DNA of 64,000 bases from the IMG/VR virus record IMGVR_UViG_3300020050_007388, positions 15,730-79,729 of that record; one strand, 5' to 3'. Below are positions 291-62,692 of this stretch, piece by piece. The notes below the pieces were generated by a model that searched no databases, had not been told where the DNA came from, and worked only from the letters and a program-made list of their open reading frames with translations. Each line of letters begins with the position of its first letter. The first letter of the stretch is position 1. This DNA comes from a virus. Lineage: Duplodnaviria > Heunggongvirae > Uroviricota > Caudoviricetes. A program made the translations under genes and the position numbers.

Positions 291-3200
291 TGGGAAAATA
301 TAGATTAGACAATCCAGCAAACACACCCTTAGATCCTTTTGCATTTGAGAAACAATTTGCTCAACCTAATCTTAACAATCCTTCACCTTTTTCTGGAGTA
401 GCAGGTTCTTTAGAAGTTGTTGCTCCAGATAGGGTGGATGATGGTTATGGTACAATGGGTAATTCTGGTTATGCCGTGCAAGTTATTAATGAAGCAAAAG
501 CTAGAAATCAAGGATCAGGTGAACTTATAGCTAAGGGTTTAGGTAATGTAGTAAAAACTATTGGTATAGAGATTGGTAAAACTCCAGGTTATCTTGGAGG
601 AGTAGTAGGTGCAATTGGAAATGAGGTTTTAGGAGATGGTAAACAATCTATGAGTATGATTGTAGATAATGGTTGGGTAAATGCTTTTGAAAGTTTAGAT
701 CAAGCTACAAAAGAAATGATGCCCATTTACATATCTCAACAAGTTCAGGAAGGTAATCTATGGGATAAAATGGGATCTGGTGCATGGTGGGCTTCCACTG
801 GTGCAGATGGAGCAGGATTTATGTTAGCTATGTTTGCACCTGGAGCTGTAGCCAAGGCTTTGAAGGTTGGTTCTGGTATTGCTAGAGTTGGTGAAGGTCT
901 AGCTAATGTAGCTCCTAAATTAGGTAAGTGGGCAACCGGTAAAGGATTGTTGGAATCAGTTGGAGACAGTTTTGCTTATACACAAAAGTTTGCTAGAAAT
1001 GCAGATGGTTATGCTTCAACGGTTCTTAATACAACTATCGAATCTTCTGCTGAAGCTGCTAATACTTTTGATAATTTAAAAAGTAAATATATAGCTGAAG
1101 GTTTATCAGAAGATCAAGCCAGTCAGAAAGCTGGTGAAGGTGCTGCTGCTGTATTCAAAGGTAATATGGCACTCTTAGCAGTATCTAATTACTTAGATGA
1201 AATGTGGATATGGAAAACAATTGGATCTGCAGGTTCTAAAGAAGCTGCTCAATCTGTGTTAAACAAAGTAATTAAAGATGGAGTAATAGATACTGAAGCA
1301 CTTAAGAATGTAGCAAAAGAATTTACAAGAGGTTCAGTCCTTAAAAAGGTTGGACAAAACATTGGTAAAAATATTTTAAAAGAAGGTTTCTATGAGGAAG
1401 GTTCACAAACTACTTTACAACAAAATATTGAAGAAGAAGGATCTAAAGGTTTCTTAGGTAACTTGGTTAATATTGGGGCATCTTATTTTGATGACTTTGC
1501 TAATAATACTGAGTTACACGAATCCATATTTCTTGGTGGACTTTTAGGAGGTAGTGCTTCTATAATTGGAACTGTTCAAGAAAACAACGCACTTAAAGCT
1601 GCACTAACTGGATCTAAAGGTAGAACTGCTGATAACTTCTGGACCAAATATGGTATCTTACCACAAACTAGTCCACAGAAAGGTTTAATTAATTTGGTTA
1701 ATGAAAATCACATTAAGCAATTTAGATCTTATAAAGACTTTCTGGAACCTGATGGTAATGGCTCATTTGTTTTGAACGAACAGAAATTAGCTGATGCTCA
1801 ATTAGAGCAAGTAGATAATCTACGAACTAACATTCTTTATGATATTTCTGTTGCAGAAGGTGATAAGTTGGGTCAAGAAATATATGGTCAATACTTAGCA
1901 GCCAATTATGCTCAGTCATTTTTAGGTCAAGAAGGTGGACAAGAGATATTTAATCAACATGTTCAAGATCAAGTTTTACCAGCTTGGAGAAAAAGGTTTG
2001 AAGATTCATTTGGTAGACCTGCAACTTCTAAAGAGGAATCAGATTACACAGCTAGTTTTAAACAATCTGGAGAAAGAGTTTTTAAAGCACATAACACAGC
2101 TTCAGAAACTAATTATCCCGAAAGATATTACAAAGAGAATAATCCTGATTATGCAGATTTCAGAAATGAATACTTCCATAATAAGTTCGAGACGTTAGTT
2201 ACCCTGGATGCTTTAAAAGAAAGAAGATCTCAAGTCAATAAAGATTTGATGGATGCAGGAGTTACCATTATAGATCTTGAAGATTTAAACACCATTAAGG
2301 ATCCAGTTAAGAAACAGTTAGCTCAACAAATTAAAAACGAGTTAGATCAAATTGATAAATACGAAGAATTATTAAATATACAGTATCCTAAATTCTTTTC
2401 CAAAGCTGGAGTTAAGGAAATGTATGAAAAGTTTAAAGCTCGTAAGAATAGATTTGAAGAACTATCGAAAGAAGCTGCACAAGAAAATCAAGAACTCAAG
2501 CAGGAAGTTGACTTTTTACCTGCAGCTAACCAAGCTGAAATTGATAGATTGATTAATGAGTCTAACTCTAATAATACCTCAATTCCACTTAAAGGGTCTA
2601 ATGGTAAAAACTATTCCTTAGTTAAGGATGAAACTACTGGTGAGAATAAGGTGTTTGATGAAAATGGTGAAGAAGTTACAACTAAACTATCTGATCTCAA
2701 ATTATCTGTCAATGATGTTTCTAAAGAGGACTTTGATTCATTCAAAGAAACTTCAGAAGCATCTGATGAAGTTCTTCAGAGAATTGCTGAAAAGTTAATT
2801 AATGGTGAACCTCTTTCAGATAATGAAAAGTTAATTGCTCAAACTGAAAAAGCTAAACTTCAAGATTTATTTAATAAAGAGAAAGCTAAAATTGCAGAAA
2901 GATTAGCTAAACAAGAAGCTGTTTCTACTTCAGTTGAAGATGATTCAATAGATGCTGATGAATCAATATCTCAAGTATCTGAAAAGAAAGGTGTTAATTT
3001 ATATCCATCTACTGGTAGGAATTTACAACAAGATTTGACAGAAATTAAACCTGGAGTATTTGTAGAAAAGATGACAGATAAACCTAGTCAAAAGTTATGG
3101 TTTGAAACTCTAGATCAAATTAAGAACCCTCAAGATTATACTGTTCAAGTTGTAAGAAAGGACGATAGATCCAATATGGATTTGTTTAACCAAATTGATA

Positions 3201-4852
3201 GAGATAGTAATGAGAATTCTAAGGTAGATGATCTATATGTTGTTCTTTATAAAAATGGTAAACCTGTAACTAAAGATGGTAACTATATTTTTACTGGACT
3301 TTGGAGACCTAATACACTTTACCCAGTTAAAGATGGTAAACCAAGAGATTTCATGTTGGCTGAAAAATCTATTTTAGATAACTTCTTATTTGATGTTAGA
3401 TTACCAAAACTTAAGTTAGGTAAGTTAACTAAAAATGATAAAGAAGTACTCACACAAAATGGGGTTACAGATTTCTCGGAACAAGGTATAATGACAGCAG
3501 CATTCTTTCATGCTAAAAAAGAATATCAAGAATGGTATCAATCTCTACAAGAGAATCCTGGTCAACTACAAGTTGCTGGTATTACTAAAGGTCATGCTGT
3601 TAAAGGTTACACTTCTAAAGATAAGTCTTCTAAATATTGGGGATCTCCATTTAATATCCCAGGTTTAAAACTAAGACCTAATCCAAAGTTAAACTCTGCG
3701 GATTTAGTTGGTGGTAAATTTGAAATGTCAATTGATGGAACTATTAAGGTTGGAGATGAAACTTACACTATCTCACAAGGTGATGTGGTTATTGTAGATG
3801 ACCAAAATAATGTTCATCCAATGAAAGCTAGGAATATAAATGAGGATGAAGTTAAGACTATCTTGTATCTATTAAGTTTAAGAACTGGAAACCAACCTAC
3901 TGAAACTTTTAAAATTAAACCTCCTAATGGAATCAGGTTTGGAAATACTGTTGTAAAGGACGTTCCCATATTCTTTAATGAATCTACTAAACGTAGACAA
4001 ACTAGAGCTAATTTAATTGAAACATTAATTTCATTTGGATCAAAGAATGGTGGTAAAGGTGAGATTTACTTTAATCAACAATCTGTGAATGATGGTAAGC
4101 CTGAATTAGTATGGACAGATTTTGAAGGCAATACTAAAAACATATCTGTTTCTCTCATTGAGAATGCTGTACAGAATAATGACTTCAGTCAGATTGATGA
4201 TTTAGTTTTATTTTTGCAGCAGAAAAAGTTTAATGTAAATGAACATCTATTGAGCAATCCTACATTTGTAAAACCTCAGTTAGTTTATAAAAGAGATCAG
4301 AATGGGAAACAGGTTCCTGAACTAGAATGGAATGAAGATCAATCTTATTATGAAGTTTTACTTGGTGATGTTCTAACTACTACTACACTTGATCTTCCAG
4401 GTTACCCATCTAGGGTTCAAAGAAATATGTGGTTTAATAAAGAGCCTTTATCTCAAGATGTTAAAATAGATGAAGTTTCAAATACTACAGGCTTAGAAAA
4501 CTTAGGTTCTGTTAATAGTGAAAAGGCTATTATGAAAGCAGATGTCGAGAGTAAAGGTGAGTTTAAAATAAATCTTACAGGTGCTTCAAAAGAGCAGTCC
4601 GATAAAGCCTGGAAAGATGCTAATGAACTAGTAAGCGAAGAAGATTATGAACTAGTTCTTATTGGATCTACTAACATTCTCACATTATCTAAAAAGCTTA
4701 AAATCTCTGCAAAAGAAAAACTTGCTGAAAAAATTAGAAATAGAAAAAATTCTTTAGACAGTTTTAAAGAAGATATGGATAAAATTCTTACAACTTCAGA
4801 TCTATTAAAGATGAAGATTCAAAATGGAGAAATCATTCAGAAATGCAAATAA
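290..4852 (+). CDS. giant virion-associated protein (1520 aa), unknown function; Gly-rich N-terminus and long charged coiled-coil-like central part
   Basis: Uninterrupted 4.5-kb ORF in an AT-rich genome. Start overlaps the previous stop (TAATG). First of three contiguous giant ORFs. No catalytic motif recognised. Confidence 0.7.
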   Translation: MGKYRLDNPANTPLDPFAFEKQFAQPNLNNPSPFSGVAGSLEVVAPDRVDDGYGTMGNSGYAVQVINEAKARNQGSGELIAKGLGNVVKTIGIEIGKTPGYLGGVVGAIGNEVLGDGKQSMSMIVDNGWVNAFESLDQATKEMMPIYISQQVQEGNLWDKMGSGAWWASTGADGAGFMLAMFAPGAVAKALKVGSGIARVGEGLANVAPKLGKWATGKGLLESVGDSFAYTQKFARNADGYASTVLNTTIESSAEAANTFDNLKSKYIAEGLSEDQASQKAGEGAAAVFKGNMALLAVSNYLDEMWIWKTIGSAGSKEAAQSVLNKVIKDGVIDTEALKNVAKEFTRGSVLKKVGQNIGKNILKEGFYEEGSQTTLQQNIEEEGSKGFLGNLVNIGASYFDDFANNTELHESIFLGGLLGGSASIIGTVQENNALKAALTGSKGRTADNFWTKYGILPQTSPQKGLINLVNENHIKQFRSYKDFLEPDGNGSFVLNEQKLADAQLEQVDNLRTNILYDISVAEGDKLGQEIYGQYLAANYAQSFLGQEGGQEIFNQHVQDQVLPAWRKRFEDSFGRPATSKEESDYTASFKQSGERVFKAHNTASETNYPERYYKENNPDYADFRNEYFHNKFETLVTLDALKERRSQVNKDLMDAGVTIIDLEDLNTIKDPVKKQLAQQIKNELDQIDKYEELLNIQYPKFFSKAGVKEMYEKFKARKNRFEELSKEAAQENQELKQEVDFLPAANQAEIDRLINESNSNNTSIPLKGSNGKNYSLVKDETTGENKVFDENGEEVTTKLSDLKLSVNDVSKEDFDSFKETSEASDEVLQRIAEKLINGEPLSDNEKLIAQTEKAKLQDLFNKEKAKIAERLAKQEAVSTSVEDDSIDADESISQVSEKKGVNLYPSTGRNLQQDLTEIKPGVFVEKMTDKPSQKLWFETLDQIKNPQDYTVQVVRKDDRSNMDLFNQIDRDSNENSKVDDLYVVLYKNGKPVTKDGNYIFTGLWRPNTLYPVKDGKPRDFMLAEKSILDNFLFDVRLPKLKLGKLTKNDKEVLTQNGVTDFSEQGIMTAAFFHAKKEYQEWYQSLQENPGQLQVAGITKGHAVKGYTSKDKSSKYWGSPFNIPGLKLRPNPKLNSADLVGGKFEMSIDGTIKVGDETYTISQGDVVIVDDQNNVHPMKARNINEDEVKTILYLLSLRTGNQPTETFKIKPPNGIRFGNTVVKDVPIFFNESTKRRQTRANLIETLISFGSKNGGKGEIYFNQQSVNDGKPELVWTDFEGNTKNISVSLIENAVQNNDFSQIDDLVLFLQQKKFNVNEHLLSNPTFVKPQLVYKRDQNGKQVPELEWNEDQSYYEVLLGDVLTTTTLDLPGYPSRVQRNMWFNKEPLSQDVKIDEVSNTTGLENLGSVNSEKAIMKADVESKGEFKINLTGASKEQSDKAWKDANELVSEEDYELVLIGSTNILTLSKKLKISAKEKLAEKIRNRKNSLDSFKEDMDKILTTSDLLKMKIQNGEIIQKCK

Positions 4853-4858
4853 TAAAAT

Positions 4859-7800
4859 ATGGCAGATTGTACTTTTGTATATAAAGGGAAATCATACTCT
4901 AAAGATCGGATTACTCGACTTTTAGTAGATGAACTTCCAGTAAGAAGTCAACAAGAAGGAATCAACTTCTTGAAAGAATTTTTAGGAATGACTGATGATG
5001 AAATCATAATCATTAAAGGTTTAATTGATGGAAAATCAATTGGTAGGTTTAAATCTGATGGTAAAATATTACTGTCAGATTTAGCCGAAACTGGAGTTGC
5101 TTATCATGAAGCATTCCATAGAGTCTGGAGAATGTTTTTAACTAATGAAGAAAGACTTCAAGCAATTAAAGAAGTAAAAGCTAGAAAGAATATTCAATTA
5201 ACCATTGATGGCTACAGAGAAGTTTATCCAAAGCTAAGTGAAAATGAATTGATTGAAGAAATTTTAGCTGATGAATTTTCAGACTTTAAGATGAATGAAG
5301 ATTATAAGACCGAACTTCCAATTAAAACCTTTTTCCAAAGATTGTGGAATTTCTTGAAAAAATTAGTTGGTCTTAAGACTTCTGATGTTCAATTGATTTA
5401 TGATAAGATTTTAAGTAAAACTTATAAGACTGCTCCTCAATCTGTACAACAGTATTTAAAAGATGCAGATAAAGTTTTAATTCAAGGTCATGAGTTTTCT
5501 GTTGAAGAAAAGAATGAGTTAATTCAAGTAATGACTCAACAGTTTGTTAAAGCAATGTTGGATCTTAACGGTAACATAGATGTATTCTTAAATTCACCAA
5601 CTGTTAAAATGAAACAATTGGTTGAGGACTATGTTATAACAAATATGTTATCTGACATGATGGATGCTGGAGTAAATGAAGATTTAGTTTCTGCAGTATT
5701 TCAAGATGTTGAAGCTTGGGTTGAGTCAAATAAATTTGAAGATTCCATATTTGTAAACGGAATGGTTCAGAACTTAAAGTTGATAGGATTAGTCATTAAA
5801 GATGATTCAGAAGATTTATCTGAAGGAGCTTTAGAAGGTGAAGAAAAACAAGCTAGAGAATATGGAGCTTCCATTGAGATTGACCCTAAATCTAAAATGG
5901 GTAAGAAGATTAAACTCTTATTGTCCAGTTTTTCAGATCCTAATGAAAAGACTACAAACTTTGGATTCCCAAAACCTGTAGGTTGGACCAAAGCTTTTGT
6001 TCAAATAGCCACTAAGATGGCAGGAATACCCACGTCTGTTTTTAGAGAAGAATTAAAAGCTCTAAATGTTCCATATATTCAAGACTTAATTGAAATCTTG
6101 GAAAAAGATGTAGTCTTTGGAAATGAATTTATCTCAACAATGGCCATGACTGAAAATAAATTCATGAAGATGAATTATAAGAATGGTGATATTTATTTCT
6201 TTGATGCTAACTCAGGAACTCGTAGAGACAAATTGGTTGGAGAATGGAAAAACAACTTAATCCGTAAAGTAGAGAATTGGGATGAATGGAAAGCAGAAGC
6301 TGCTGAATTAGAAAGAAAGAAGGGATCTGTTTCTGATGAAGAAATTATGGATCACTTTGGTTTAGTCCTTAATTTCCAAATTCCAGATCTACGTTCAGAC
6401 TTGAACTTCATTTTAAGTTTAGTAGATAAATATAAAGGAGATAAACCAGATCCTTCCAGGTTGTTTGAGCAATTAGGTATCAAAGGTTATGTCAATACTT
6501 TAGCAGAAAAACAATCTGCTTATGAAGATCATGTTGACTTGATGGTAATGTTGGGTTCTAAAAAGTTATATACGCTTGGATTAAATACTCAACAAACTCA
6601 AGTTGTAAATGGAGTTAAGTATGCTCAATCTAAGTTTACTCCAGATATGACTACAAGTCAAAAGATAGAGTTACTTAAAGAATTTGCACCATTTCAGGTC
6701 TCAGAGTTTAATATAACGAAATTAGAATCTGGAGAATACTTGATTCATAATAAATGGTTGGAAAAGATTCTAGAAGGTGAAAAACTGGAGTTGGTAATTC
6801 CTTATCAAGTAGATACTCAATCTGGAGAAGATTCTGAAATTGCTAAATTGGAAGAATCTGACTTAATGGCTTTACACTTAAATGGAGCTTTACAAGGAGT
6901 AAACATTAGCATGAAACATGCTGATCGTGGAACTTTCTTTGCTTATACATTTGGTAATAATAAACCTCTTTATACTAAGCAGGGTAATGTTGCAGATACT
7001 CTTAAGATCTTAGAAAGAAATATTATCGAACAGATTGAATTGGAAGCTAAGTTTTATAACAATATGTTGGAACGAAATATTCCAGTTCAATATATTGGTG
7101 AGCAAGACATTGATAATAAAAATGTTGATAAGCAAAAGTTTGGAGCATTTTCTAAAGATATTATTGGTGTAGATGATTTTAAAACATTATTAGCTACTGG
7201 TGAAGTTCCTAACAAATCTAAGATAACAGAGTTTGTAAGTAAAGCTTTTGAAGATTACAAAAAAAGTGTTGAAGCTTATGGATTGTTAGGAGAGTTCTCA
7301 GAACCCGTTTATAAAGATGGTAAAAGAACTGGAGAAATCAAGAAACTAAAAGGTGTTAATAATAACTTAAGGTTTCAATATGCCAATCTTGATTTGCTTT
7401 TAGCTTCAGCATTTACCAATGAAGTCTCTAGTCATATTTTTGAAGTAAGATTCTTTTCTGGAGACGTAAGGTCTTTTAAGTCTGGTACTGACTTATTCAA
7501 ACGTTTAGCTCCACAAAGTTCTACTGGTAATTTAACAGTTACAGATAATGTAGCTAATGAGGATGTTAGAGTAAAGTTAGATCAAGATTTTGAAATACTT
7601 AATCCAGTTACTGGAGAAACTGTAATAGTTAACCCAAGTAAAAATATTGGTGAAGGAAAAGATAAATACTTTAGGGCTGTAACTGGAGCTGAAAGATCTA
7701 ATTATAAAAGTCACTTACTAGAACCTGCATTAAGTTCTACTGGTAAACCTTTAGTATCTAAACTAACTGGAAATAATGAGTCTAAGTTATTCATGATGTT

Positions 7801-14476: not shown

Positions 14477-17400
14477 ATTGTACAACACCAGATGATTTCA
14501 ACTCAGCAATTGAGTTTGGTAGAATTATTAATGAAACAAAGCCTAATCAAGCAGCTGAAGTAACCGTTACATTCCTGGATAATACGTCTGGGAATGTAAC
14601 TAAACTTGATAAATCATATCAAGCTATTGGTGGAACAGCTAAGATTAAGGAGAGTGTTACAGAGAAAGCTGGAAGATTAAAACCTTTTAGAGGTAAAGCT
14701 AATCCACTGTTGGATCAGCAGGCTGATCTTGGACAATATGTTCACGATGTATCAGAAATGATTACTCAAGATATTGTGAATGCAATTGGTGATAAATCTA
14801 ATGACTATGCACTAACTTATGTCAAGAACATAAATACCATTGACGAAGAAGGTTTAAAAAAAATAAATCAAATGTATGGAAAAACTTTAGATAATAAATC
14901 TAAAGTTAGAGTTTTGGAAGGAGTTAAAGAGAATTTGTTAATTATTTACCGTCAACAAAGAACCATTAACAAACTAACTGGAAAAGAAGGTAAAGTAACT
15001 ATCAGATTAAAACAAATAGTTATTGATCCAAAAAACGGAATTGGTGGAACCATAGACTTCTTAGCTATATTTTCAGATAATACTGCAGCTATCATAGATT
15101 ATAAAACCAAAATTGTTACATCAAGCAATCAAGATGCTTTTGGAAATATTATCAATATTGACAAAGTAATTTATCCTCAAGCTGTTGAAAAGTATAAACT
15201 ACAAACTGGTGAATATGGTAGGATCTTAAGAGAATCTTATGGAGTAAAATCTATTGCTAATATAACTATTATTCCAATTAAGATTAATGTTAAATTGGAT
15301 AAGAAGTTAGGTAAGTATGGAAACAAAATTGAGAACTTAGCTTTTCCTGGGCAAGATCCATTGTTAGAGAAAATCTTACCTTTTAGTAACTCAACCAGAT
15401 TTAAATCTTTAGATGAATTTATTCGAGCAATTGATGAGCGTATTCAAAAGTTGGAACAAAAAATTAAGTCTAATCCTAGTCAAAGAGAGGAACTTTCCAA
15501 AAGAATTAAAGAATTGAATAACGGAAGAAAAGATATTCTCATTAACCATAACATGGATACCATCCTAAATTACGGTAAGAGTTTGTCAGAGAAGGTTAAA
15601 AAAGGGGAAATGGGAGAATTAAGTGTTTCTGAATTACAAGATTTAATTCATGAAATGCAGCTGTTAGCCAGTATTGCAGAATCTACCTATGAATATCGTA
15701 AGAGTTTAAAAGGAACTACCAAAGAGAAAGATCTGGATGAAATAGAACAAAAAATTGGATTAATTACACGAGAATTAAAAGATAGAATTGAAGAACTAAA
15801 AGTAGTTTTATTTGAAGACAAGATTACCAAACTAATTGAGATTCACACGGGTTATAAAATAACAGATGATTTTGGAAATTACGTTCCATTTGCTCAAGAA
15901 GGTTATATGGGAAAATGGTTTTATCAGTTAAGTCAATATGATAATCCAATCTTTAAAACTTTAAGATCTATCTTAGATGACATTAATTACAAAGTAAGAC
16001 AAAAGACAGAAGCTGTAGTTGAAAATATTAAAGAAACGGAGGATAAAGTTTATACTTGGTTAAACAATACTGGTAGATCATTTGAGGATTTAATCACAAT
16101 TATGATTAATCCAAAAAATGATAACTTTTGGGGCAAGTATAGTTCTGAATACTTTGATAAAATTAATTCAGCAAAACCTGAAGAACTACATACCTTTTAT
16201 GAACCTTCAGAAACATATGAAGAATGGTATACTCAAGCTTTATTCAAAAAAGCTAATCAGTTAAAAGATGAAGGAGTTACAGGAGAAGAATTGAATAAGC
16301 TTATTAATAGTTGGGTTAGTCAAAATGATTTGTCTGTAGTGGATGGTGAAGCTGTACATCCTGAAGCTTGGGAACAAGCTAAAAGATTTAACAGGTTACA
16401 TCTAAAAGACAATCCAAAAGCTTATAATGAAAATTATAAATTTATCATGTCTGTTCCTGAACTGAAAGCGTACTATGAAATGTTTGAAACTTATAATAAA
16501 GAGTTTAGAGGTATGTTAGGTGTTGATTATAATCAATTACCTAATAACTTCTTACCTAATATTAGAAAGTCAATGACAGAAAGAGTAGCTGAACATGGTG
16601 CTGGAGGTCTACTAACTGGAGTCCAAGATTACTTGAAGGATTTTTCAATTAGGGAAGAAGATAGATCAGCAGATTCTACATACAACTCTAATTCTCAAAT
16701 TCCAATCTTTTTCTTAAATCCGTTTAGAGCTGAAGATAAAAGTTTAATGATTGGTGAAAAGTCATACCAGTTTGGTAGATCTTTAGCAATCTTTGCTAAA
16801 ATGGCTTATAATTATGAAGCTTCTACAGAACAGGAAGCTAATATCTTAGCACTACAAGAATTCTTAAGTACTGAAGCTGAACAACTAACTCAATCTAGAG
16901 GTAGAAACCTGATTGATAAAATGGGTAATAATTTGACAGAGAAGTTACAAGCTACAGAATTACCAGAGATATTTCAATCTTTTGTTGATATGTACTTGTA
17001 TAGAATTAATGTTAAATCTATTATTGGTGATAAGTCAGGTAAGGCTGAAAAAATGTTATTAAAAGCCAAAGAATATTTTACTTTAAAAGTCTTAGGTTTT
17101 AACGTTATTGCAGGTTTAGGTTCTCTAGCTACTGCTAAGATCAACTCTATGATTGAAGCTAACAAAGGTATTATTTTTAACAAAGATAATTACACAGAAG
17201 CTATGAAAGCTTCATGGTCTGAAAGAGATAAGTTTTTAGCTATCAACGCATACTTTGATCCAATGTCACATCGCTTAAATAATCCTGCTATTGGAGGAGA
17301 AAAAAAATATGGTGAAAGACAATATGGAGATCCTACCATGAGAGGTTGGGTAAACAAATATGTTAATGCTAGAATGTTGATGAACACATTTTCTATTGGT

Positions 17401-42301: not shown

Positions 42302-43600
42302 TCATTCTACAACCTCCTCTTCTTTATCCAAAGCTTTAGTTTCCATTTCAAGGAAAGCTTTAGATTTTAATTTGTAGGTCATTTTATTTTCAGATTCATT
42401 TCTAATGCAAATACCTTCTGCAGGAACCTTCTTAGTACAATATGTACAATTTTGTTCAAGATAAACTCTTTTTAAAGATTCCAAAAAGGTTTCTCCAATA
42501 TTAGAATTTTGAACACACCAACCTTTGATTGTTCCATAAAATAATTCTGGAACATGTTCCAACTGATGTTCTCTACAGAAATCTTTAATTTCATCCCATG
42601 AGTATTCTAATACTGCTCCCATACGAGTTGTCTGAGTTATTCTGTAAACTAAGAACTTATGTTCTCCTGGCTTACAACCATAATCATAACCAGCTTGAAT
42701 CATCTTCTCTCCAGTATAACCTACAATTTCTCCATAAATAGTATAACTTTGGAACAGTTTGTCTTTAATCTCTTCAAACACTTTCCCCCAAATATCAGAG
42801 TTATAATATCCTCCTTCAGGTGTATTGTATTTACCTTCAACAGATTTAATAACTGTTCTACTAGAATACATCTTAGAATACTCTTTAGTTTTTACATCAG
42901 AACCAAAGAATTTTTTAACTTTTTCCCAAAATGAAAGTTTTCTTTTAGTTAGAAGATTGGAGAATACTGCTGAAGTTCCATGCCATTTATCTGTAATAAC
43001 AATTTTATCATCTTCATTCTGAAACTTCCAAATATTATCTTGAAGTTTAGAAGTACTGTAATGGAAGTTAAACTGTCCTGGAATAAGGATGTCATTTACT
43101 TTAAGTATTTTCTTTTCTCCAGTTCCACCACCAGATCTAACTTCTTTAATTACAGGAACATATTTTTGGCAGATAGTATAACCATCTATTGTGTCAAACT
43201 CTTGGTTTATAAATTGTTGAGCTTCTCCAATAATGTCTAAATATGAGATACCTAAAACATTCATTATCTCGGAATAAGGTAAAACCATTCCTTCAGACAT
43301 TATTCCTCTAAGTTTTACAGCTCTAACCCTACCAGTCTTATGAACATAACCTGCTATATTCTTATCTTCATTCAAATCTTTATCTGAAAACAAATTCATT
43401 TTAGATAGAATCTTTTGATCTATCTGACATTCAATTGGAAAATAGATACATATATCTCCAGATTGTCTAGACATATCAGTGATAATTTCATACCCATTAA
43501 CGGAAAATATCTGTAAACGATTTGCATTAGGATGGACTTTAGGAATACCTAATTGTACAACTTTTGCAAGATAGTTAGAGGGTGTGTTAATTGTTAGCAT
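42302..43600 (-). CDS. Rnl2-like RNA ligase (covalent nucleotidyltransferase) with ~200-aa N-terminal extension
   Basis: Motif I KWHGTS (KxHGxN/S, RNA-ligase type rather than KxDG), motif III TIYGEIVG, motif IV EGICIR, motif V KLKSK, in canonical order and spacing. Confidence 0.55.
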   Translation of the reverse strand: MLTINTPSNYLAKVVQLGIPKVHPNANRLQIFSVNGYEIITDMSRQSGDICIYFPIECQIDQKILSKMNLFSDKDLNEDKNIAGYVHKTGRVRAVKLRGIMSEGMVLPYSEIMNVLGISYLDIIGEAQQFINQEFDTIDGYTICQKYVPVIKEVRSGGGTGEKKILKVNDILIPGQFNFHYSTSKLQDNIWKFQNEDDKIVITDKWHGTSAVFSNLLTKRKLSFWEKVKKFFGSDVKTKEYSKMYSSRTVIKSVEGKYNTPEGGYYNSDIWGKVFEEIKDKLFQSYTIYGEIVGYTGEKMIQAGYDYGCKPGEHKFLVYRITQTTRMGAVLEYSWDEIKDFCREHQLEHVPELFYGTIKGWCVQNSNIGETFLESLKRVYLEQNCTYCTKKVPAEGICIRNESENKMTYKLKSKAFLEMETKALDKEEEVVE

Positions 43601-54761: not shown

Positions 54762-54873
54762 AAAAACTAATTAGTTACAATTTATAGTACCCCTGACAGG
54801 GGATGATCCTGCACGGACTTCACAGTCCAAAAGGGTTTAAACCTTTCTCGGCTTCCAGTTACGACACAGGGGC

Positions 54874-55710
54874 TTATTGTTTAACTTGATCTAATATTCC
54901 GTATCTTATACACCATTTTCTAACCGCATTATCACTAACGTTAAAATGTTTTCCTACTTGTAAAAAGTTTTTATGGATTTTAAATGCTTCAAGTAAAGTT
55001 TCATATGTAGGAACTTTAATAGACGCAGCTATATTTTTACATTCATATGAACAATATACATTTCTAGTTCTAGTAAGAATGTTATCACAAACCTTACAGT
55101 GTTTCAACACTACCGTTTTAGCAACTTTTGGTAAAACTATCTTTTTATTTACTAAAACTTCAGTAGTGTCACGATTATTATATTTTTCTAATCTTAATTT
55201 AGAAACAAAGCTTGTTTGATTCTTTCCCCTAAAAGTTGGTGTTTGAGAATGACAATTTGGACACAGTAATTCTAAATTTGAAATTAAATTATTTGTGTTT
55301 TCCCCATCAATGTGGTTAAGCTCTAATGTAATATTAGAGCCATTCCAATTAGAAATACCACATTTATTACATTCGTATTTAACGTGACCACCATCCAAAA
55401 GATTCCTTTTTACAGTTTTATTAGATGTACACTTTGAATCTTTAATAAATAATTCTTGAGGACTATAAGTTTTTGCAAAATTTTTATATCTGACCCCTAC
55501 ATTCCAACCTTGTCCTGTGAAATGTTCAGTAGAAATGCCAAACTCAATAAATTTCTTTTTTAAAGTTCTGTAGTTTCCCCCAAGAGGTCTCAGATTTAAC
55601 TCCCTACAAACTTGTGCTGTTGATAAGCTTTTGTTAACAGCTTCTTGTAATTGTTCTTTCGTAATTTTGTATCTCATGTTTATATGATTGTGTGAGACAC
55701 AAAGATACAC
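54874..55710 (-). CDS. HNH homing endonuclease
   Basis: CNKCG ... LELNHIDGENTNNLISNLELLCPNCHSQT matches the HNH ββα-Me zinc-finger core. Confidence 0.7.
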   Translation of the reverse strand: MYLCVSHNHINMRYKITKEQLQEAVNKSLSTAQVCRELNLRPLGGNYRTLKKKFIEFGISTEHFTGQGWNVGVRYKNFAKTYSPQELFIKDSKCTSNKTVKRNLLDGGHVKYECNKCGISNWNGSNITLELNHIDGENTNNLISNLELLCPNCHSQTPTFRGKNQTSFVSKLRLEKYNNRDTTEVLVNKKIVLPKVAKTVVLKHCKVCDNILTRTRNVYCSYECKNIAASIKVPTYETLLEAFKIHKNFLQVGKHFNVSDNAVRKWCIRYGILDQVKQ

Positions 55711-55860
55711 TATGATTTACGAGTTTTAAACAATTTAGAAATAAATCAAGTACTTTATCGACTAACAATACTTATTTATCGACGAACTACATAAAATCAT
55801 CGACATAAATATTTTATAAGTGTGACATGTATAGCAGTTCCATCACCGGACCAAAAACAT

Positions 55861-56067
55861 TTACTTTTTATCTTTTACTTCTTTCTTTTCAGAATCTTTC
55901 ACTTCTTCCTTCTTTTGAAAATCCTCTTGAGCTTTTTTCATACAAGTATTTTTATGATAACCACAACCACAATCACAAATATGATCGGGTTTTTCATAAT
56001 GGTGCTTTTCTAAACTCATACGTTCTTTTTTAGTTAACTTTTTTCTATCTGGTAAATTCTTACGCAT
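55861..56067 (-). CDS. small Cys-rich protein (68 aa)
   Basis: HICDCGCGYHKNTC cluster. Confidence 0.35.
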   Translation of the reverse strand: MRKNLPDRKKLTKKERMSLEKHHYEKPDHICDCGCGYHKNTCMKKAQEDFQKKEEVKDSEKKEVKDKK

Positions 56068-56281
56068 AACTAAATAATTTAAAATTGATAGGGATGCTTG
56101 CTTACCTATCTTCCTCCCGCATACTTAATTGTATTGGAGATTGCTCTACTTAAACACGGATAGAGTGCCTACATTACTGTGTTACCACAGTTATAAATTA
56201 CAGATCTAGTAGTTTTAACATAAGTAACTCCTAGCATTTCTCTAAATGGAAAAGGTGGTGTTAACCCTTCTGTATTTATTC

Positions 56282-56647
56282 TTACTTCACTTCTTCAGCT
56301 CCAACTCCAGCTGTAGCCAATGCTTGCTCAAAGTCAAAACCAAAATCAGCAGCAGTTGCACGTACAGCAGAGGTCAAAGGACTAATGCTGATAATTGGCT
56401 CATTTGGACGATCTTCAGTAAATACGACATTGCACAAATAATCAGTACCAAGTTTAATACCTTTGTCCAAATTTGCTTTGTAGCAAATTGCTGACCGGGT
56501 TTTCCCTTCAAAGGAAATAGAACCTACTACATACTCTGTTCCATTACTGTTTTCCAATAGTGTATCACCAAGTGATACTACTGTTGCTTTAATTTGACCA
56601 GTAAATTGTTTTCTGGTTGCATCGAATTCAAGATTTTCAATTTTCAT
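56282..56647 (-). CDS. hypothetical protein (121 aa)
   Basis: ORF only. Confidence 0.5.
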   Translation of the reverse strand: MKIENLEFDATRKQFTGQIKATVVSLGDTLLENSNGTEYVVGSISFEGKTRSAICYKANLDKGIKLGTDYLCNVVFTEDRPNEPIISISPLTSAVRATAADFGFDFEQALATAGVGAEEVK

Positions 56648-56697
56648 TGTTAACTTTGTTTAAATTATTTAAATTTGTCAATAATACAACTGACTTT

Positions 56698-56772
56698 GTG
56701 GTGAGAGAAGATTTTGAGCCTCCGACCTGTTGTGTTTCAAACAACCGCTCTTACCATCTGAGCTACCTCACC
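56698..56772 (-). tRNA. tRNA-Phe (anticodon GAA)
   Basis: Reverse complement GGTGAGG-TA-GCTC-AGATGGTAA-GAGC-G-GTTGT-TTGAAAC-ACAAC-AGGTC-GGAGG-CTCAAAA-TCTTC-TCTCACC-A folds as a cloverleaf. Anticodon loop TT-GAA-AC. T-loop is atypical (C at position 54). No encoded CCA. Confidence 0.65.
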
Positions 56773-56785
56773 TACACATCTTTTA

Positions 56786-57379
56786 CTATAAAGGTTTATA
56801 AGCATTATTTATGCCATACATGGATGTATCATTTCCTTTTACCATATATGAATCCTTATCTGTATGTGGATTAATAACTATTTGAGATACAATACCTAAA
56901 TACTTAAATATATGTGTATTAGATCTTCTAAAGACTTCATCTCCAACTACAGGAATAAACTTTTCGTAGTATTTATTTTGTCTTCTAGGCCATTTACAAG
57001 TATGACCAATACAAGTGTATATATTAGATTCACCAAATCCTGGTTCATTTTCTTCTCCAGGTAATCTAGAACCCTTTTTCTGATTACATTTATAACACAT
57101 TGGTTGTTTATTATCCAAACCTTCACCACCACCTCTTGATTTAGGAATGATATGGTCCACAGTAAGTGGATAAAAATCACTTGTGTAAACATCCCAATGT
57201 TTACCAGCCTTTTTTCCCTTACCTTCTCCTAATGCAATTTGTGTAGCTTCAATACCACACTCAACACATTTGCATCCTTTCAGATGAAAGACTTTAAGTC
57301 TTGGATGCTCTTTAAATTCTTCTAAAGCCGTGATAGGTTTAGTTTCTAGAATTTTATAATGAAAAAATTGTGCTCTCAT
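56786..57379 (-). CDS. HNH endonuclease
   Basis: CVECG ... VDHIIPKSRGGGEGLDNKQPMCYKCNQKKGSRL is a classic HNH motif. Confidence 0.7.
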   Translation of the reverse strand: MRAQFFHYKILETKPITALEEFKEHPRLKVFHLKGCKCVECGIEATQIALGEGKGKKAGKHWDVYTSDFYPLTVDHIIPKSRGGGEGLDNKQPMCYKCNQKKGSRLPGEENEPGFGESNIYTCIGHTCKWPRRQNKYYEKFIPVVGDEVFRRSNTHIFKYLGIVSQIVINPHTDKDSYMVKGNDTSMYGINNAYKPL

Positions 57380-57598
57380 AAATAATTTAAAGTTTTAAAA
57401 ATAACTCTGCCAGTTTCAGTCTGGAACCATAAAATGTTATCTTCACTCCTAATATACCGTGTATGCCTACTCAGCAAGGTGGTTACTAATAGCATTATTA
57501 TATCTTCTCCATAAACAATGACGCTGAAACGTCTCTTATACACTGATCCTATAAATAGGGTAGATTTAGTGTTTACTTCAAAGCAGAGTTATATATTA

Positions 57599-57823
57599 TT
57601 ACCAATGTGTTTTACCAGTGGTATTACGTTTAACCTTTTTAGGTTTATCTTTTGGCTTTTCACCTATAAATTGAATATCTTTCAATTCATTTGGATGAGG
57701 AACTTGTTGTACATTAGCAATACTTTGTATAAAAGTTGTTCTTGTAACAACTGTATCAATTACTGTTTGAGCTGACAATTGAAAACTAACAATTGTCAAT
57801 ATTGCAATAATCAAATTTTTCAT
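57599..57823 (-). CDS. small secreted protein (74 aa)
   Basis: Signal peptide MKNLIIAILTIVSFQLSAQ (Bacteroidetes-type SAQ cleavage context). Confidence 0.45.
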   Translation of the reverse strand: MKNLIIAILTIVSFQLSAQTVIDTVVTRTTFIQSIANVQQVPHPNELKDIQFIGEKPKDKPKKVKRNTTGKTHW

Positions 57824-58071
57824 TTTAAAATTTCAATTTCATTTAACATGTAAAGTTCTGGACGTTGTGATCCTAAAACTGTTGGTCCATCATAAACAAC
57901 AATACTATCAGCTGGACGAATGATGGAATCAGGTTCACACTTAATAGGTTTTAAACCTAAGAATTTACCCTCAAACATTTGAGTTTCTTCAGGGGTTTCT
58001 TTGGTATTATAGTATTTCCAATTACTAGATTGAATAGTAATACCTTTGTAGATAAATTTAATTTCAGTCAT
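57820..58071 (-). CDS. hypothetical protein (83 aa)
   Basis: ORF only. Confidence 0.4.
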   Translation of the reverse strand: MTEIKFIYKGITIQSSNWKYYNTKETPEETQMFEGKFLGLKPIKCEPDSIIRPADSIVVYDGPTVLGSQRPELYMLNEIEILK

Positions 58072-58093
58072 TATTTAAAAATTTAATGTTTAG

Positions 58094-58165
58094 TTGCGCA
58101 GCCGGGATATGCACCCAGGTCTCAAGGTTATGAGCCTCGCGAGTTAACTACTTCTCTACCGCGCA
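58094..58165 (-). tRNA. tRNA-Met/Ile2 (anticodon CAT)
   Basis: Reverse complement TGCGCGG-TA-GAG...CTC-G-CGAGG-CTCATAA-CCTTG-AGAC-CTGGG-TGCATAT-CCCGG-CTGCGCA-A. Anticodon loop CT-CAT-AA. 3-bp D-stem. No CCA. Confidence 0.55.
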
Positions 58166-58290
58166 ATTTAATAATTAATTAGGTAGGACTGATTACCTAC
58201 ATGTAGACCTTACGTATTATCTACCAGCCATAGAGTCGAACTATGTTGATTGCCCCTACTGTATGTCTAAATTCCATCACTAATTAATTG

Positions 58291-58365
58291 TGACCCGTAC
58301 TGGACTCAAACCAGTGACCTACAAATTAGAAATTTGTTGCTACTATTCAACTGAGCTAACGGGCC
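58291..58365 (-). tRNA. tRNA-Arg (anticodon TCT)
   Basis: Reverse complement GGCCCGT-TA-GCTC-AGTTGAATAG-TAGC-A-ACAAA-TTTCTAA-TTTGT-AGGTC-ACTGG-TTTGAGT-CCAGT-ACGGGTC-A. Anticodon loop TT-TCT-AA. No CCA. Confidence 0.65.
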
Positions 58366-61230: not shown

Positions 61231-61278
61231 AATTAAGATTTTAAAGTTTAAGTTACTCTATTACTAGAGTCTGCACAA

Positions 61279-61902
61279 TTATTTATATTTCCACTTGTAA
61301 CCATAAGCGGAAGTTCTTTTACCTTTACAGCATTTGCTTATTTCAGAAACATTTTTATTTGTTTTACCTATAGCTAAACAAGCTTCTGTTATGCTATTAT
61401 ACACATTGATTGTTTTTCCTAATAGATCTAATTGCTCAACAGATTTTATTTTATAGTCGAAAGAATTCTTTTTTCTATATTTAAATAAACTTCTTTCTTT
61501 TAATATTGTCCTCACTGTGATTATAGAAATATTTAATTTGTCTGCTATTTTTCGAGTGGATTTTAGATCCACATATAAATCTGGAATAATATCTTCATAT
61601 TTTCTTTTTCTTGTACAACCTTTACATCCTTCTCCACCTTTTGTAAGATTATATCCATTTCTATAAGAATTGTATTTCCTTATATAATAAATCTCTTTTT
61701 CATCTAATAATTCAGGTTTTGTTTTTTCAACTATTTCAAATGTAAAATTTTCCAAACCATATTTCAGTATTGCTGAATAAATGGCACATTTATACTTTTT
61801 TGGTTTAATGTGTTGTTTCCATCTAATATTAGGTTCTTGGACCGTTTGCCCAATATAACATTTATTATTTAAATGATTTGTAATTTTATAGATTATTGCC
61901 AT
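61279..61902 (-). CDS. GIY-YIG homing endonuclease
   Basis: MAIIYKITNHLNNKCYIGQT ... RWKQH ... ILKYGLENFTFEIVE. C-terminal Cys cluster CCKGKRTSAYGYKW. Confidence 0.75.
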   Translation of the reverse strand: MAIIYKITNHLNNKCYIGQTVQEPNIRWKQHIKPKKYKCAIYSAILKYGLENFTFEIVEKTKPELLDEKEIYYIRKYNSYRNGYNLTKGGEGCKGCTRKRKYEDIIPDLYVDLKSTRKIADKLNISIITVRTILKERSLFKYRKKNSFDYKIKSVEQLDLLGKTINVYNSITEACLAIGKTNKNVSEISKCCKGKRTSAYGYKWKYK

Positions 61903-62692
61903 AACTAAGATTAATATTTACACTCTGTATTTATAGAGGCTTGTGACTCTCATCGAATTGATGGCTACATTACTAAACAGATTATTGCTAATCTGCTTAT
62001 CCCATTTAAGGACTTACATTCTCTGTTTCCAGGAAATATTATGGTGAGGTTATTTATAACTGGTAACTCACCGCTCCAGGAACTAAATTGTCGACCAATT
62101 TAATCTTTTACTTCAACAACTTCTGCAAATCTTCTCAAAAATATCTTGATATTATAATCAAGATTATTAATGAGAGGATTTGAGTGCTCTACCAGACTGA
62201 GCTATTTCTCGATTTAAACTTATTTAGAATAAGTTTGTACAATCATGTCCACATTTCTTCTATCAACTGTTAATCCTGATTCAGTTAACAATACTTCCAC
62301 AATTTATGTATAGAACTTCCATACATAAATTGTTCACCGAGAAGTTGTGCACACATAATGTCTACAACTGTAAGTTTCGTTTTCATATTTTTATTTTAAA
62401 ATGGTTAACGGTTTAATCCAGTTTCATCACCGTAAGTTTTATATCACACTGGAACTTTGACAAACCTACTATATCCTGATTATAGAATCAGTCAATTTCA
62501 GTCTTTAGATAATAGATTAGAGAATCGCAAGCTCACAATATCTTATTTCTAAGACCCAAAGTTACAGGATGACCCATTCTCTTTTTACAGTAGTGTTAAA
62601 GCTTTGATCTATTATCATCAGTCATATTAAGAAACAAGTCTGACTGGCAGTAAACTTGTTAATCATAAGTAAGATCGACTAGTATGCTGTAC

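Follow-up and report, generated by a model that had tools for sequence, protein, structure and literature searches.

A gap without long open reading frames in a divergent crAss-like phage is probably a mosaic of structured-RNA genes, a truncated tRNA gene and a homing-endonuclease leader with a twister ribozyme match

The 64,000 nucleotides (nt) of viral DNA analyzed here (the window; positions 15,730 to 79,729 of IMG/VR record IMGVR_UViG_3300020050_007388, Caudoviricetes) come from a divergent crAss-like phage with 31% G+C, a DNA polymerase about 30% identical to Crassvirales polymerases, and a replication module on the minus strand. Our subject is the gap at 61903-62692, which at 790 nt is longer than any other part of the window free of open reading frames (ORFs) of 40 amino acids (aa) or more; the runner-up measures 531 nt and contains two tRNAs. 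A first-pass annotation of the sequence alone had already called it the longest non-coding stretch, as these figures bear out, and had described it as ORF-free and rich in palindromes. Every palindrome on its list is present where it was placed, and the region is indeed hairpin-rich, folding better than dinucleotide shuffles on both strands (z = -7.4 on the minus strand, -6.1 on the plus strand). The label ORF-free holds for ORFs of at least 40 aa but conceals a 33-aa ORF on the minus strand, the remnant of a frameshifted gene. All genes around the gap lie on the minus strand, and an identical arrangement was found in two independent Joint Genome Institute (JGI) assemblies (contigs L264 and L265). 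Read on the minus strand, the gap leads from a structured RNA, here called motif A, through the frameshifted gene, a truncated tRNA gene, a filler and a gene tail to the 5' part of a second RNA, motif B, and on to an endonuclease leader with a twister ribozyme match:

62619-62659, minus strand: 5' pseudoknot domain of motif A; stem S1 is ACAAGU/ACUUGU, and CAGUC in the S1 loop pairs with a downstream GACUG (S2).
62459-62618, minus strand: expansion segment of motif A, about 160 nt, closed by the helix 62602-62616/62508-62522 (inverted repeat I3).
62408-62458, minus strand: 3' pseudoknot domain of motif A; AAAGU, stem S3 UCCAG/CUGGA and the conserved loop GUGUGAUAUAAAACUUACGGUGAUGAAA; loop nucleotides ACGGU pair with ACCGU (S4).
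62220-62386, minus strand: small protein gene, frameshifted; it retains the 33-aa ORF at 62285-62386, and its intact forms have 55 aa (L265) and 64 aa (contig L275).
62300-62332, no strand: perfect 12-base-pair (bp) palindrome CAATTTATGTAT-N9-ATACATAAATTG, inside the small gene.
62183-62211, minus strand: truncated tRNA gene; acceptor 5' strand CGAGAAA, U8-A9, the full D-arm and the first anticodon-stem bases.
62135-62182, minus strand: deletion-junction filler, 48 nt, with the perfect palindrome ATCTTGATATTATAATCAAGAT; no counterpart in L275.
62108-62134, minus strand: gene-tail remnant, the last nine codons, GAAGATTTGCAGAAGTTGTTGAAGTAA, encoding EDLQKLLK*; read against L275 5896-5922.
62043-62107, minus strand: two hairpins upstream of motif B, AAUUGGUCGACAAUU and GGUGAG...CUCACC.
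61996-62042, minus strand: motif B; AUAUUUC, the GNRA hairpin CUG-GAAA-CAG, AGAAU, GUAAG, a small hairpin with the 7-nt loop UUAAAUG, and AUAAG.
61978-61995, minus strand: first hairpin of the cassette, CAGAUUA-GCAA-UAAUCUG; at this point L275 has its own closing stem, AUUGAAC/GUUCAAU.
61917-61976, minus strand: match to the type-P1 twister ribozyme (Rfam RF03160); predicted cut between U61972 and A61971.
61279-61902, minus strand: GIY-YIG and NUMOD1 homing endonuclease gene, 207 aa (Pfam PF01541, E = 2.4e-9, and NUMOD1).
61255-61280, minus strand: AAUUGUGCAG and then the hairpin ACUCUA-GUAA-UAGAGU; from here on, just ahead of a 77-aa gene, the window is again homologous to relatives that lack the endonuclease.

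The key comparison is with contig L275, a relative about 95% identical whose flanks are 89-96% identical to the window and which has neither endonuclease nor twister; L265, the same as the window in sequence, carries the twister. Window and L275 become homologous at 62663, about 4 nt ahead of the S1 stem, and they are 95% identical both over motif A plus the small gene and over the expansion segment of motif A taken alone. In L275, motifs A and B lie 3.3 kilobases (kb) apart, with the small protein gene, a complete tRNA and three more genes between them. Because L275 holds these parts apart and intact, the gap is better read as a mosaic than as one element. Our reading, to which we assign a probability of roughly 0.7, is that it arose through two rearrangements in a crAss-like phage and works on the minus strand by the RNA and homing mechanism proposed below.

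The first rearrangement lies at the tRNA. Window positions 62254-62183 align with L275 3121-3192, where the alignment stops. L275 3164-3242 is a complete tRNA (ARAGORN; 48.1 bits with the Rfam model) with acceptor CGAGAAA/UUUCUCG and an encoded CCA, and its first 28 nt or so are the D-arm fragment of the window, CGAGAAA-TA-GCTC-AGTCTGGTA-GAGC-A. The first-pass annotation had rightly recognized this canonical tRNA 5' half on the minus strand, although its estimate was about 15 nt away from the actual position, 62185-62211. It had also noticed CTCAAA...TTTGAG in place of an anticodon arm; that stem exists, but it begins exactly at the anticodon-stem start of the intact L275 tRNA, and its 3' strand, UUUGAG, is provided by the filler. 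About 2.7 kb of L275 is then absent from the window: the remaining 3' half of the tRNA and three genes, which encode 54, 705 and 124 aa. L275 5896-5922 is the end of the 124-aa gene and encodes the same peptide as the window remnant, with synonymous differences; this match was read directly, being too short for BLAST to report. As judged from the sequences, a deletion of about 2.7 kb cut the window tRNA short and removed its remainder together with three genes. The suggestion of a tRNA-derived recombination scar was thus right for the D-arm fragment, and the scar itself is ordinary.

ARAGORN called no tRNA inside the gap and the Rfam tRNA model had no match there at E up to 10, so that the Rfam and tRNA searches proposed with the first-pass annotation yielded a twister match and no tRNA. 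The 3' acceptor strand TTTCTCG is absent from the minus strand of the window, and no 3' half occurs anywhere in it; a full tRNA with an anticodon-loop intron was rejected on the latter ground. Two loops of the L275 tRNA are unusual: the anticodon loop (UUCCGAAUU, flanked by CUUGC and GCAAG) is oversized, and the T-loop, GUCGUAG, is odd. The anticodon assigned to this tRNA by ARAGORN is CGA.

The small gene upstream of the tRNA is real. A single C that L265 has near 62304 and the window lacks restores the 55-aa ORF, and the L265 protein is homologous over its whole length to a 63-aa ORF of contig L006 (BLASTP E = 4e-10), the beginning of which the 33-aa ORF of the window resembles. A protein search with the small gene found one further homologue, P0122 (64 aa, 69% identity), on L275. 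The 12-bp palindrome had been described as perfect; it is present and lies inside this gene, but only the 1-nt deletion makes it perfect. As to conservation of the palindromes, which had been proposed as a check, those within motif A are kept in L275 and the others are not.

The second rearrangement is the insertion of a cassette into the motif-B gene. Where L275 has the 3' part of the motif-B RNA (6029-6282), the window has hairpin, twister and endonuclease (61280-61995), and homology resumes at TTGTGCAGACTCTAGTAATAGAGT (also given as TTGTGCAGACTC). The window thereby retains the 5' part of the RNA, and a 245-nt 3' portion with the closing stem, conserved hairpin and long-range helix has been replaced. 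The endonuclease is a free-standing GIY-YIG enzyme with both catalytic domain and DNA-binding module, and its presence in the window and absence from L275 is a polymorphism at one site with sharp junctions.

Related endonucleases occupy the same RNA gene elsewhere. L139 has an endonuclease 59% identical to that of the window at the equivalent site of this RNA gene, immediately behind GGGAUAAG, and the motif-B closing stem and conserved hairpin come after the endonuclease stop codon. Homologues 56-66% identical in L139, L266 and L267 stand right after GGGAUAA(G/A), with the remaining RNA gene kept downstream, and in L273 the same cassette leader follows directly on a diverged motif-B copy (AUAAGCCCUUAAGUGGGAUAAA). 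Five short contigs of other samples (L268-L272) carry a 76%-identical endonuclease; ahead of it lies the 3' half of this twister, and directly after it come ATTGTGCAG and a hairpin, as in the window. The element at 61255-61280 also follows the RNA in L006, L053, L140, L141, L266, L267 and L268. Past the endonuclease in L266 (700-735) we observed a second, degenerate copy of the motif-B hairpin (GUAAAGCCAUUUAAAUAUGGAUAAG), so that this insertion is flanked by two diverged copies of the likely target. L267 has two near-threshold matches to the DUF805b RNA motif (989-1025 with 35.5 bits and 1718-1750 with 31.6 bits; the gathering score is 35.6).

A group I intron bearing the endonuclease was rejected, as both catalytic core and exons are absent. 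The first-pass annotation had likewise thought such an intron less likely, and was right: there is no Intron_gpI match at E up to 10, and the flanks are unrelated genes. The same model does detect an intron at L006 8022-8293 (61.7 bits, above the gathering score), on a contig that also carries motifs A and B.

Motif A, at 62408-62659, is an intact structured RNA of about 250 nt with two consecutive H-type pseudoknots and one expansion domain. A blastn search of the gap against 50,697 phage records gave a sole match, 45 nt in an unannotated spacer of Pseudomonas phage phiHQ, which spans the 3' domain. Loci were gathered with a DNA pattern seeded by this match, from a metagenome-assembled genome contig (L138) and by blastn from phiHQ, which led to Ralstonia phage RP13; motif A is present in 11 loci besides the window. 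In the consensus, the first pseudoknot has an S1 hairpin with the loop UCAAUUG-CCAGUC-UGAC, which pairs with a downstream GACUGG (S2). The second, after AAAGU, has an S3 hairpin with a near-invariant 27-nt loop, from which ACGGU pairs with a downstream AAACCGU (S4). The near-invariant loops are UCAAUUG, UGAC, AAAGU, AAACUUACGGUGAUGAAAC and AAACCGU.

Covariation supports this structure. Across the seven sequences of alignment A3, 96% of cells are paired and 17 of the 26 pairs show compensatory changes; none of 500 shuffles reached the observed pairing, and slid controls attained at most 37%. S4 is invariant in these seven, and L006, outside the alignment, has ACUGU in S4, a one-sided change that keeps a G-U pair. 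A covariance model (R1) built without the window sequence scored 62.4 bits on the 3' domain of the window (E = 5e-11) and 76.6 bits on RP13, which has a new S3 stem and a sequence deviating from the DNA search pattern. The 5' domain of the window matches the A3 consensus in its architecture and S2 sequence, with a weak covariance-model match of 10 bits; its pattern occurs once in the window against 0 expected, and was written after seeing the sequence. The CTGATT/AATCAG hairpin noted in the first-pass annotation sits inside the expansion segment. L002 has an insertion at the same point of motif A, shorter at 42 nt.

In other phages the core of motif A is about 105 nt long and forms a stand-alone unit in tRNA arrays. 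It abuts tRNAs on the same strand in L011, L013, L014 and RP13, inside or at the head of the array, starting 3-4 nt past a tRNA CCA and ending 4-10 nt ahead of the next tRNA. Two of the carriers are cultured jumbo phages in which the motif is unannotated: RP13 (L263, LC554890) at 2493-2594, ending 4 nt before a tRNA-Leu, and phiHQ (L001, PV029745) at 2992-3109. Among about 60 phiKZ-like records, phiHQ is the only carrier, with the motif inserted in a spacer; the 3' half of that spacer is conserved across the group. Because phiHQ alone among these phages has it, motif A acts like a module that can move. In L275 a 228-nt ORF-free segment (2456-2683) with no counterpart in the window directly adjoins motif A on its upstream side. 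No family in Rfam 15 matches motif A. As candidates we rejected RNase P RNA, hepatitis delta virus (HDV)-like, hatchet and pistol ribozymes, transfer-messenger RNA (tmRNA) and signal recognition particle RNA, in which the helix order misfits by eye and for which Rfam gave no match, and also T4 rnaC and rnaD, with no similarity evident when read by eye.

Motif B is a second conserved structured RNA, separate from motif A. By blastn it is 80-98% identical to L002, L006, L015, L053 and L275 (98% with L275), and it occurs in more than 10 loci (L002, L006, L015/L134, L053, L139/L142, L140, L141, L266, L267 and L275), with the diverged copy in L273. All three pairs of its GNRA hairpin covary across 8 loci, as do 7 of 8 in the closing stem (alignment A4). 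A hairpin precedes motif B in every family member, its sequence not being conserved, and the hairpins at 62043-62107 are presumed to be the 5' part of the motif-B RNA. Cassette-free loci continue with the closing stem and its variable insert, the conserved hairpin GGCAGCAAGUUGGAUACUUGC, a long-range helix UUGUAUAUC/GAUAUACAA (in the compensatory form UUAUAUAUC/GAUAUAUAA in L015 and L275), and then AUUGUGCA and a GNRA hairpin. The whole RNA measures about 365 nt, against about 105-260 nt for motif A. No Rfam family matched motif-B loci (L002 and L015 at E up to 1; L006, L140, L141 and L142 at E up to 0.1; L275). Of the candidates in the first-pass annotation, a long structured non-coding RNA was thus right in kind, but there are two such elements, each conserved on its own.

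A permissive covariance-model scan with Rfam 15 (901-nt region, E up to 10) gave the type-P1 twister as its single strong match, plus a weak match to YrlA. This twister, the GIY-YIG identity of the adjacent ORF and the broken small gene had all been missed in the first-pass annotation. The twister match scores 52.2 bits (E = 1.2e-10 to 2.4e-9) and lies below the gathering score of 67.2. Its core nucleotides and P1-P2-P4 order are those of the family, with UAA, GCC, G..GUC.CAAGCC (GUCNCAAGCC), UAAA and GAG.G kept, and the minimum-free-energy fold recovers P1 (UGUUUA/UAAAUA), P2 and P4. The consensus CCC...GGG reads CAC...GUG in the window. From published structures, these two blocks are presumably partners in a tertiary pairing, which the change would preserve. 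A 10-nt direct repeat, GCAATAATCT (minus strand), brackets the twister at 61979-61988 and 61890-61899, and the endonuclease ORF begins with the second copy. The placement hints at an insertion of the twister there, accompanied by a short duplication, but a repeat of this length is not above chance in such AT-rich sequence.

We consider the rearrangements, the conserved RNA structures, the twister match and the shared endonuclease insertion site to be directly demonstrated by these comparisons. For the mechanism we propose the following. There is no terminator-like site on the minus strand between the elements of the gap, and for that reason the stretch is probably transcribed through. The twister would cut between U61972 and A61971, so that the truncated upstream RNA would end at a fixed point in a 2',3'-cyclic phosphate and the endonuclease mRNA would be freed with a 5'-OH. 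The endonuclease would cut cassette-free alleles such as L275 near GGGATAAG|ATTGAAC and spread by recombinational repair; cutting and repair of this kind would also favor flanking deletions and mosaics like that of the window. Motif A, because its core abuts the flanking tRNAs in arrays, is most likely excised as a small stable RNA by tRNA-processing nucleases.

Several points weigh against this reading. Transcription, twister cleavage and motif A excision are all inferred, and so is the direction of the first rearrangement, a deletion in the window as opposed to an insertion in L275, which we take from the truncated tRNA and the gene tail. The twister scores under the Rfam threshold, its P1 is weak in the covariance-model alignment, and L268 has UAGA against the consensus UAAA. 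For the motif-A 5' domain of the window the model score is low and the pattern was post hoc, which makes this domain no more than probable, and the closing-stem partners in alignment A4 were partly picked by eye. As for the 1-nt frameshift, an assembly error, in one direction or the other, could account for it. Finally, L006 too joins a tRNA-like D-arm to motif B within about 150 nt, with a covarying stem, and given this the tRNA fragment might have acquired a role instead of being a pure scar.

Of the competing explanations, that of a decayed or chance look-alike without activity, with the cassette 5' leader merely an untranslated region, survives best, and we think it unlikely. Consistent with it are the sub-threshold score, a shortened P2, a non-canonical P1 pair and a fold no more stable than shuffles; the twister is also present only with this cassette, being absent beside the related endonucleases of L139, L266, L267 and L273. 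Against it stand E values of about 1e-10 to 1e-9, near-invariant blocks that are all kept, and a sole change in the presumed tertiary-pairing blocks that is matched in the partner block. The 3' half is moreover conserved upstream of the 76%-identical endonuclease in other samples, as in L268.

Less probable still is a functional tRNA mimic, akin to the tRNA-like domain of YrlA (bacterial Y RNAs), in place of a scar. The YrlA match (RF02553) covers 62151-62266, with 23.8 bits and E = 0.016 in the 901-nt search, far under the gathering score of 69. L006 has a nearly identical D-arm, with the stem CUAGC/GCUAG at the anticodon-stem position where the window has CUCAAA/UUUGAG, and the 7-nt loop UUAAAUG of motif B resembles a T-loop. 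The intact L275 tRNA has an identical 5' part, which makes the window copy a truncation; filler that is missing from L275 supplies the 3' strand of the pseudo anticodon stem, and the window has no 3' acceptor strand. No Ro60 (Rsr) orthologue was found among the selected window ORFs that were scanned.

We also weighed whether the whole stretch of about 700 nt is one large ornate RNA resembling GOLLD or ROOL, with motif A as 5' domain, a tRNA-bearing linker, motif B as 3' domain and the twister trimming the 3' end. In the window as in L002 and L006, motifs A and B are indeed no more than a few hundred nt apart, and the parts are not separated by a terminator. The size would fit; GOLLD and ROOL are reported near phage tRNA islands, and GOLLD linkers can bear tRNAs (PMC12286853). 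The distance between the motifs in L275, with protein genes and a complete tRNA in between, speaks strongly against a single molecule, as do the homologue of a real protein gene within the supposed linker and the fact that each motif occurs, at most of its loci, without the other. With no Rfam match to GOLLD or ROOL at E up to 10 either, we judge this very unlikely.

A DNA-level element, the replication origin or packaging site of the first-pass annotation with its palindromes as DNA hairpins or protein-binding sites, deserves next to no credence: for all its dense palindromes, its better-than-shuffled folding on both strands and the adjoining replication gene module, cumulative GC skew turns only at about 19 kb, where gene orientation flips, there are no iterons but just 2-copy repeats of 10-20 nt, the conserved helices covary as RNA on the transcribed strand and tolerate G-U on one strand only, always that of the neighboring tRNAs, and the palindromes are otherwise explained (one in a coding gene, one deletion filler, others ribozyme stems) and, outside motif A, not conserved in L275.

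Under the mosaic reading, several known systems invite comparison. The twister resembles type-P1 twisters (RF03160) in its P1-P2-P4 order, in the blocks UAA, GCC, GUCNCAAGCC, UAAA and GAGNG and in its setting near phage genes, and differs from curated members in its sub-threshold score, very short P2, AT-richness and position in a homing-endonuclease leader bordering a structured-RNA gene. In the literature we found no report of a twister in such a leader beside such a gene. For bacterial twisters, cutting of polycistronic transcripts has been suggested, their biological roles being largely open (PMC6765202).

The endonuclease is comparable to T4 SegB, also a free-standing GIY-YIG enzyme among phage tRNA and small-RNA genes; SegB sits in the tRNA gene cluster by the small stable RNAs rnaC and rnaD, and homing by repair has been shown there (PMC2330249). 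Unlike SegB, the window endonuclease replaces part of an RNA gene instead of lying between genes, and brings a putative ribozyme. In the twin-ribozyme group I introns of Didymium, a lariat-capping ribozyme upstream of the homing-endonuclease ORF makes the 5' end of its mRNA. The window would be similar in function only, by analogy, with a small ribozyme just upstream of a homing-endonuclease ORF; it has no group I intron or splicing and another ribozyme class and chemistry, and its host RNA gene is left truncated.

Motifs A and B share with GOLLD and ROOL that they are phage-encoded, highly structured, rich in pseudoknots and near tRNA genes (PMC12286853); in L002 and L006 they adjoin tRNA arrays. 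They differ in being smaller, separate units. GOLLD or ROOL identity was rejected, with no covariance-model match and with alignments to ROOL env-120 and GOLLD env-38 (PMC12286853 sequences) within the range of shuffles. Theta (minimal HDV-like) ribozymes are reported to adjoin phage tRNAs (PMC10879173), and motif A is likewise a compact pseudoknotted RNA packed against phage tRNA genes. Unlike HDV-like ribozymes, it has two consecutive H-type pseudoknots and not a nested double pseudoknot, no match to an HDV family was found, and motif A is not known to cleave itself. The abundant long non-coding RNAs of crAss-like phage phi14:2 (bioRxiv 10.1101/2020.03.07.982082) were also rejected as counterparts, one being tmRNA-like and the other sharing only a 16-mer. 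In that phage (L274, NC_021806), the highly transcribed long intergenic region at about 4020-4520 looks tmRNA-like by eye, with a GGGG... 5' end and a GGGGGTTCGAATCCCCCC-GACTCCAC 3' end.

Other features of the window touch on these subjects. ARAGORN found four tRNAs 3.5-8 kb downstream of the gap on the same strand, and two HNH endonuclease genes (54874-55710 and 56786-57379, both minus strand) lie among these four tRNA genes (54787-58365); homing endonucleases have colonized the tRNA region of the window as a whole. The sequence WATTGTGCA has 7 sites in the window, including 61272-61280 (minus strand), against 1.6 expected, and in related loci, with three instances in L267, ATTGTGC(A) and a GNRA-loop hairpin recur ahead of genes. 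A promoter or a leader element is a possible identity; the promoter candidate ATTGTGCA, enriched at 7 against 1.6 expected, occurs on both strands. An ORF at 42302-43600 (minus strand) has Pfam RNA_ligase and PHA02142 OB-fold domains, and this RNA ligase shares the genome with tRNAs and with a putative ribozyme that would make cyclic-phosphate and 5'-OH ends.

By comparison with Rfam 15 and the literature, two structured RNA families, an endonuclease targeting a structured-RNA gene and a twister in its leader all appear to be new. A bolder idea is that motif A is a catalytic or tRNA-directed RNA of a new class, for instance a self-cleaving ribozyme that trims tRNA precursors in phage tRNA arrays or a decoy for host defenses that target tRNAs, with the twister insulating the selfish cassette from the RNA gene it invaded. 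The near-invariant loops, double pseudoknot and close tRNA spacing would be expected of a ribozyme or a specific ligand or protein site and led us to this idea, which we offer as a speculation with the odds well against it.

As a matter of method, a long palindrome-rich non-coding stretch can be a mosaic of scars, and here one close relative resolved what structure prediction could not. For the phage, the context gives a twister a concrete proposed job, to sever the transcript where the invaded RNA gene meets the homing-endonuclease mRNA, and the cassette-free L275 allele is a paired control for that role. The presence of motif A in the cultured phages RP13 and phiHQ opens it to direct study, and it joins T4 rnaC and rnaD, GOLLD and ROOL in the puzzle of the RNAs of phage tRNA islands.

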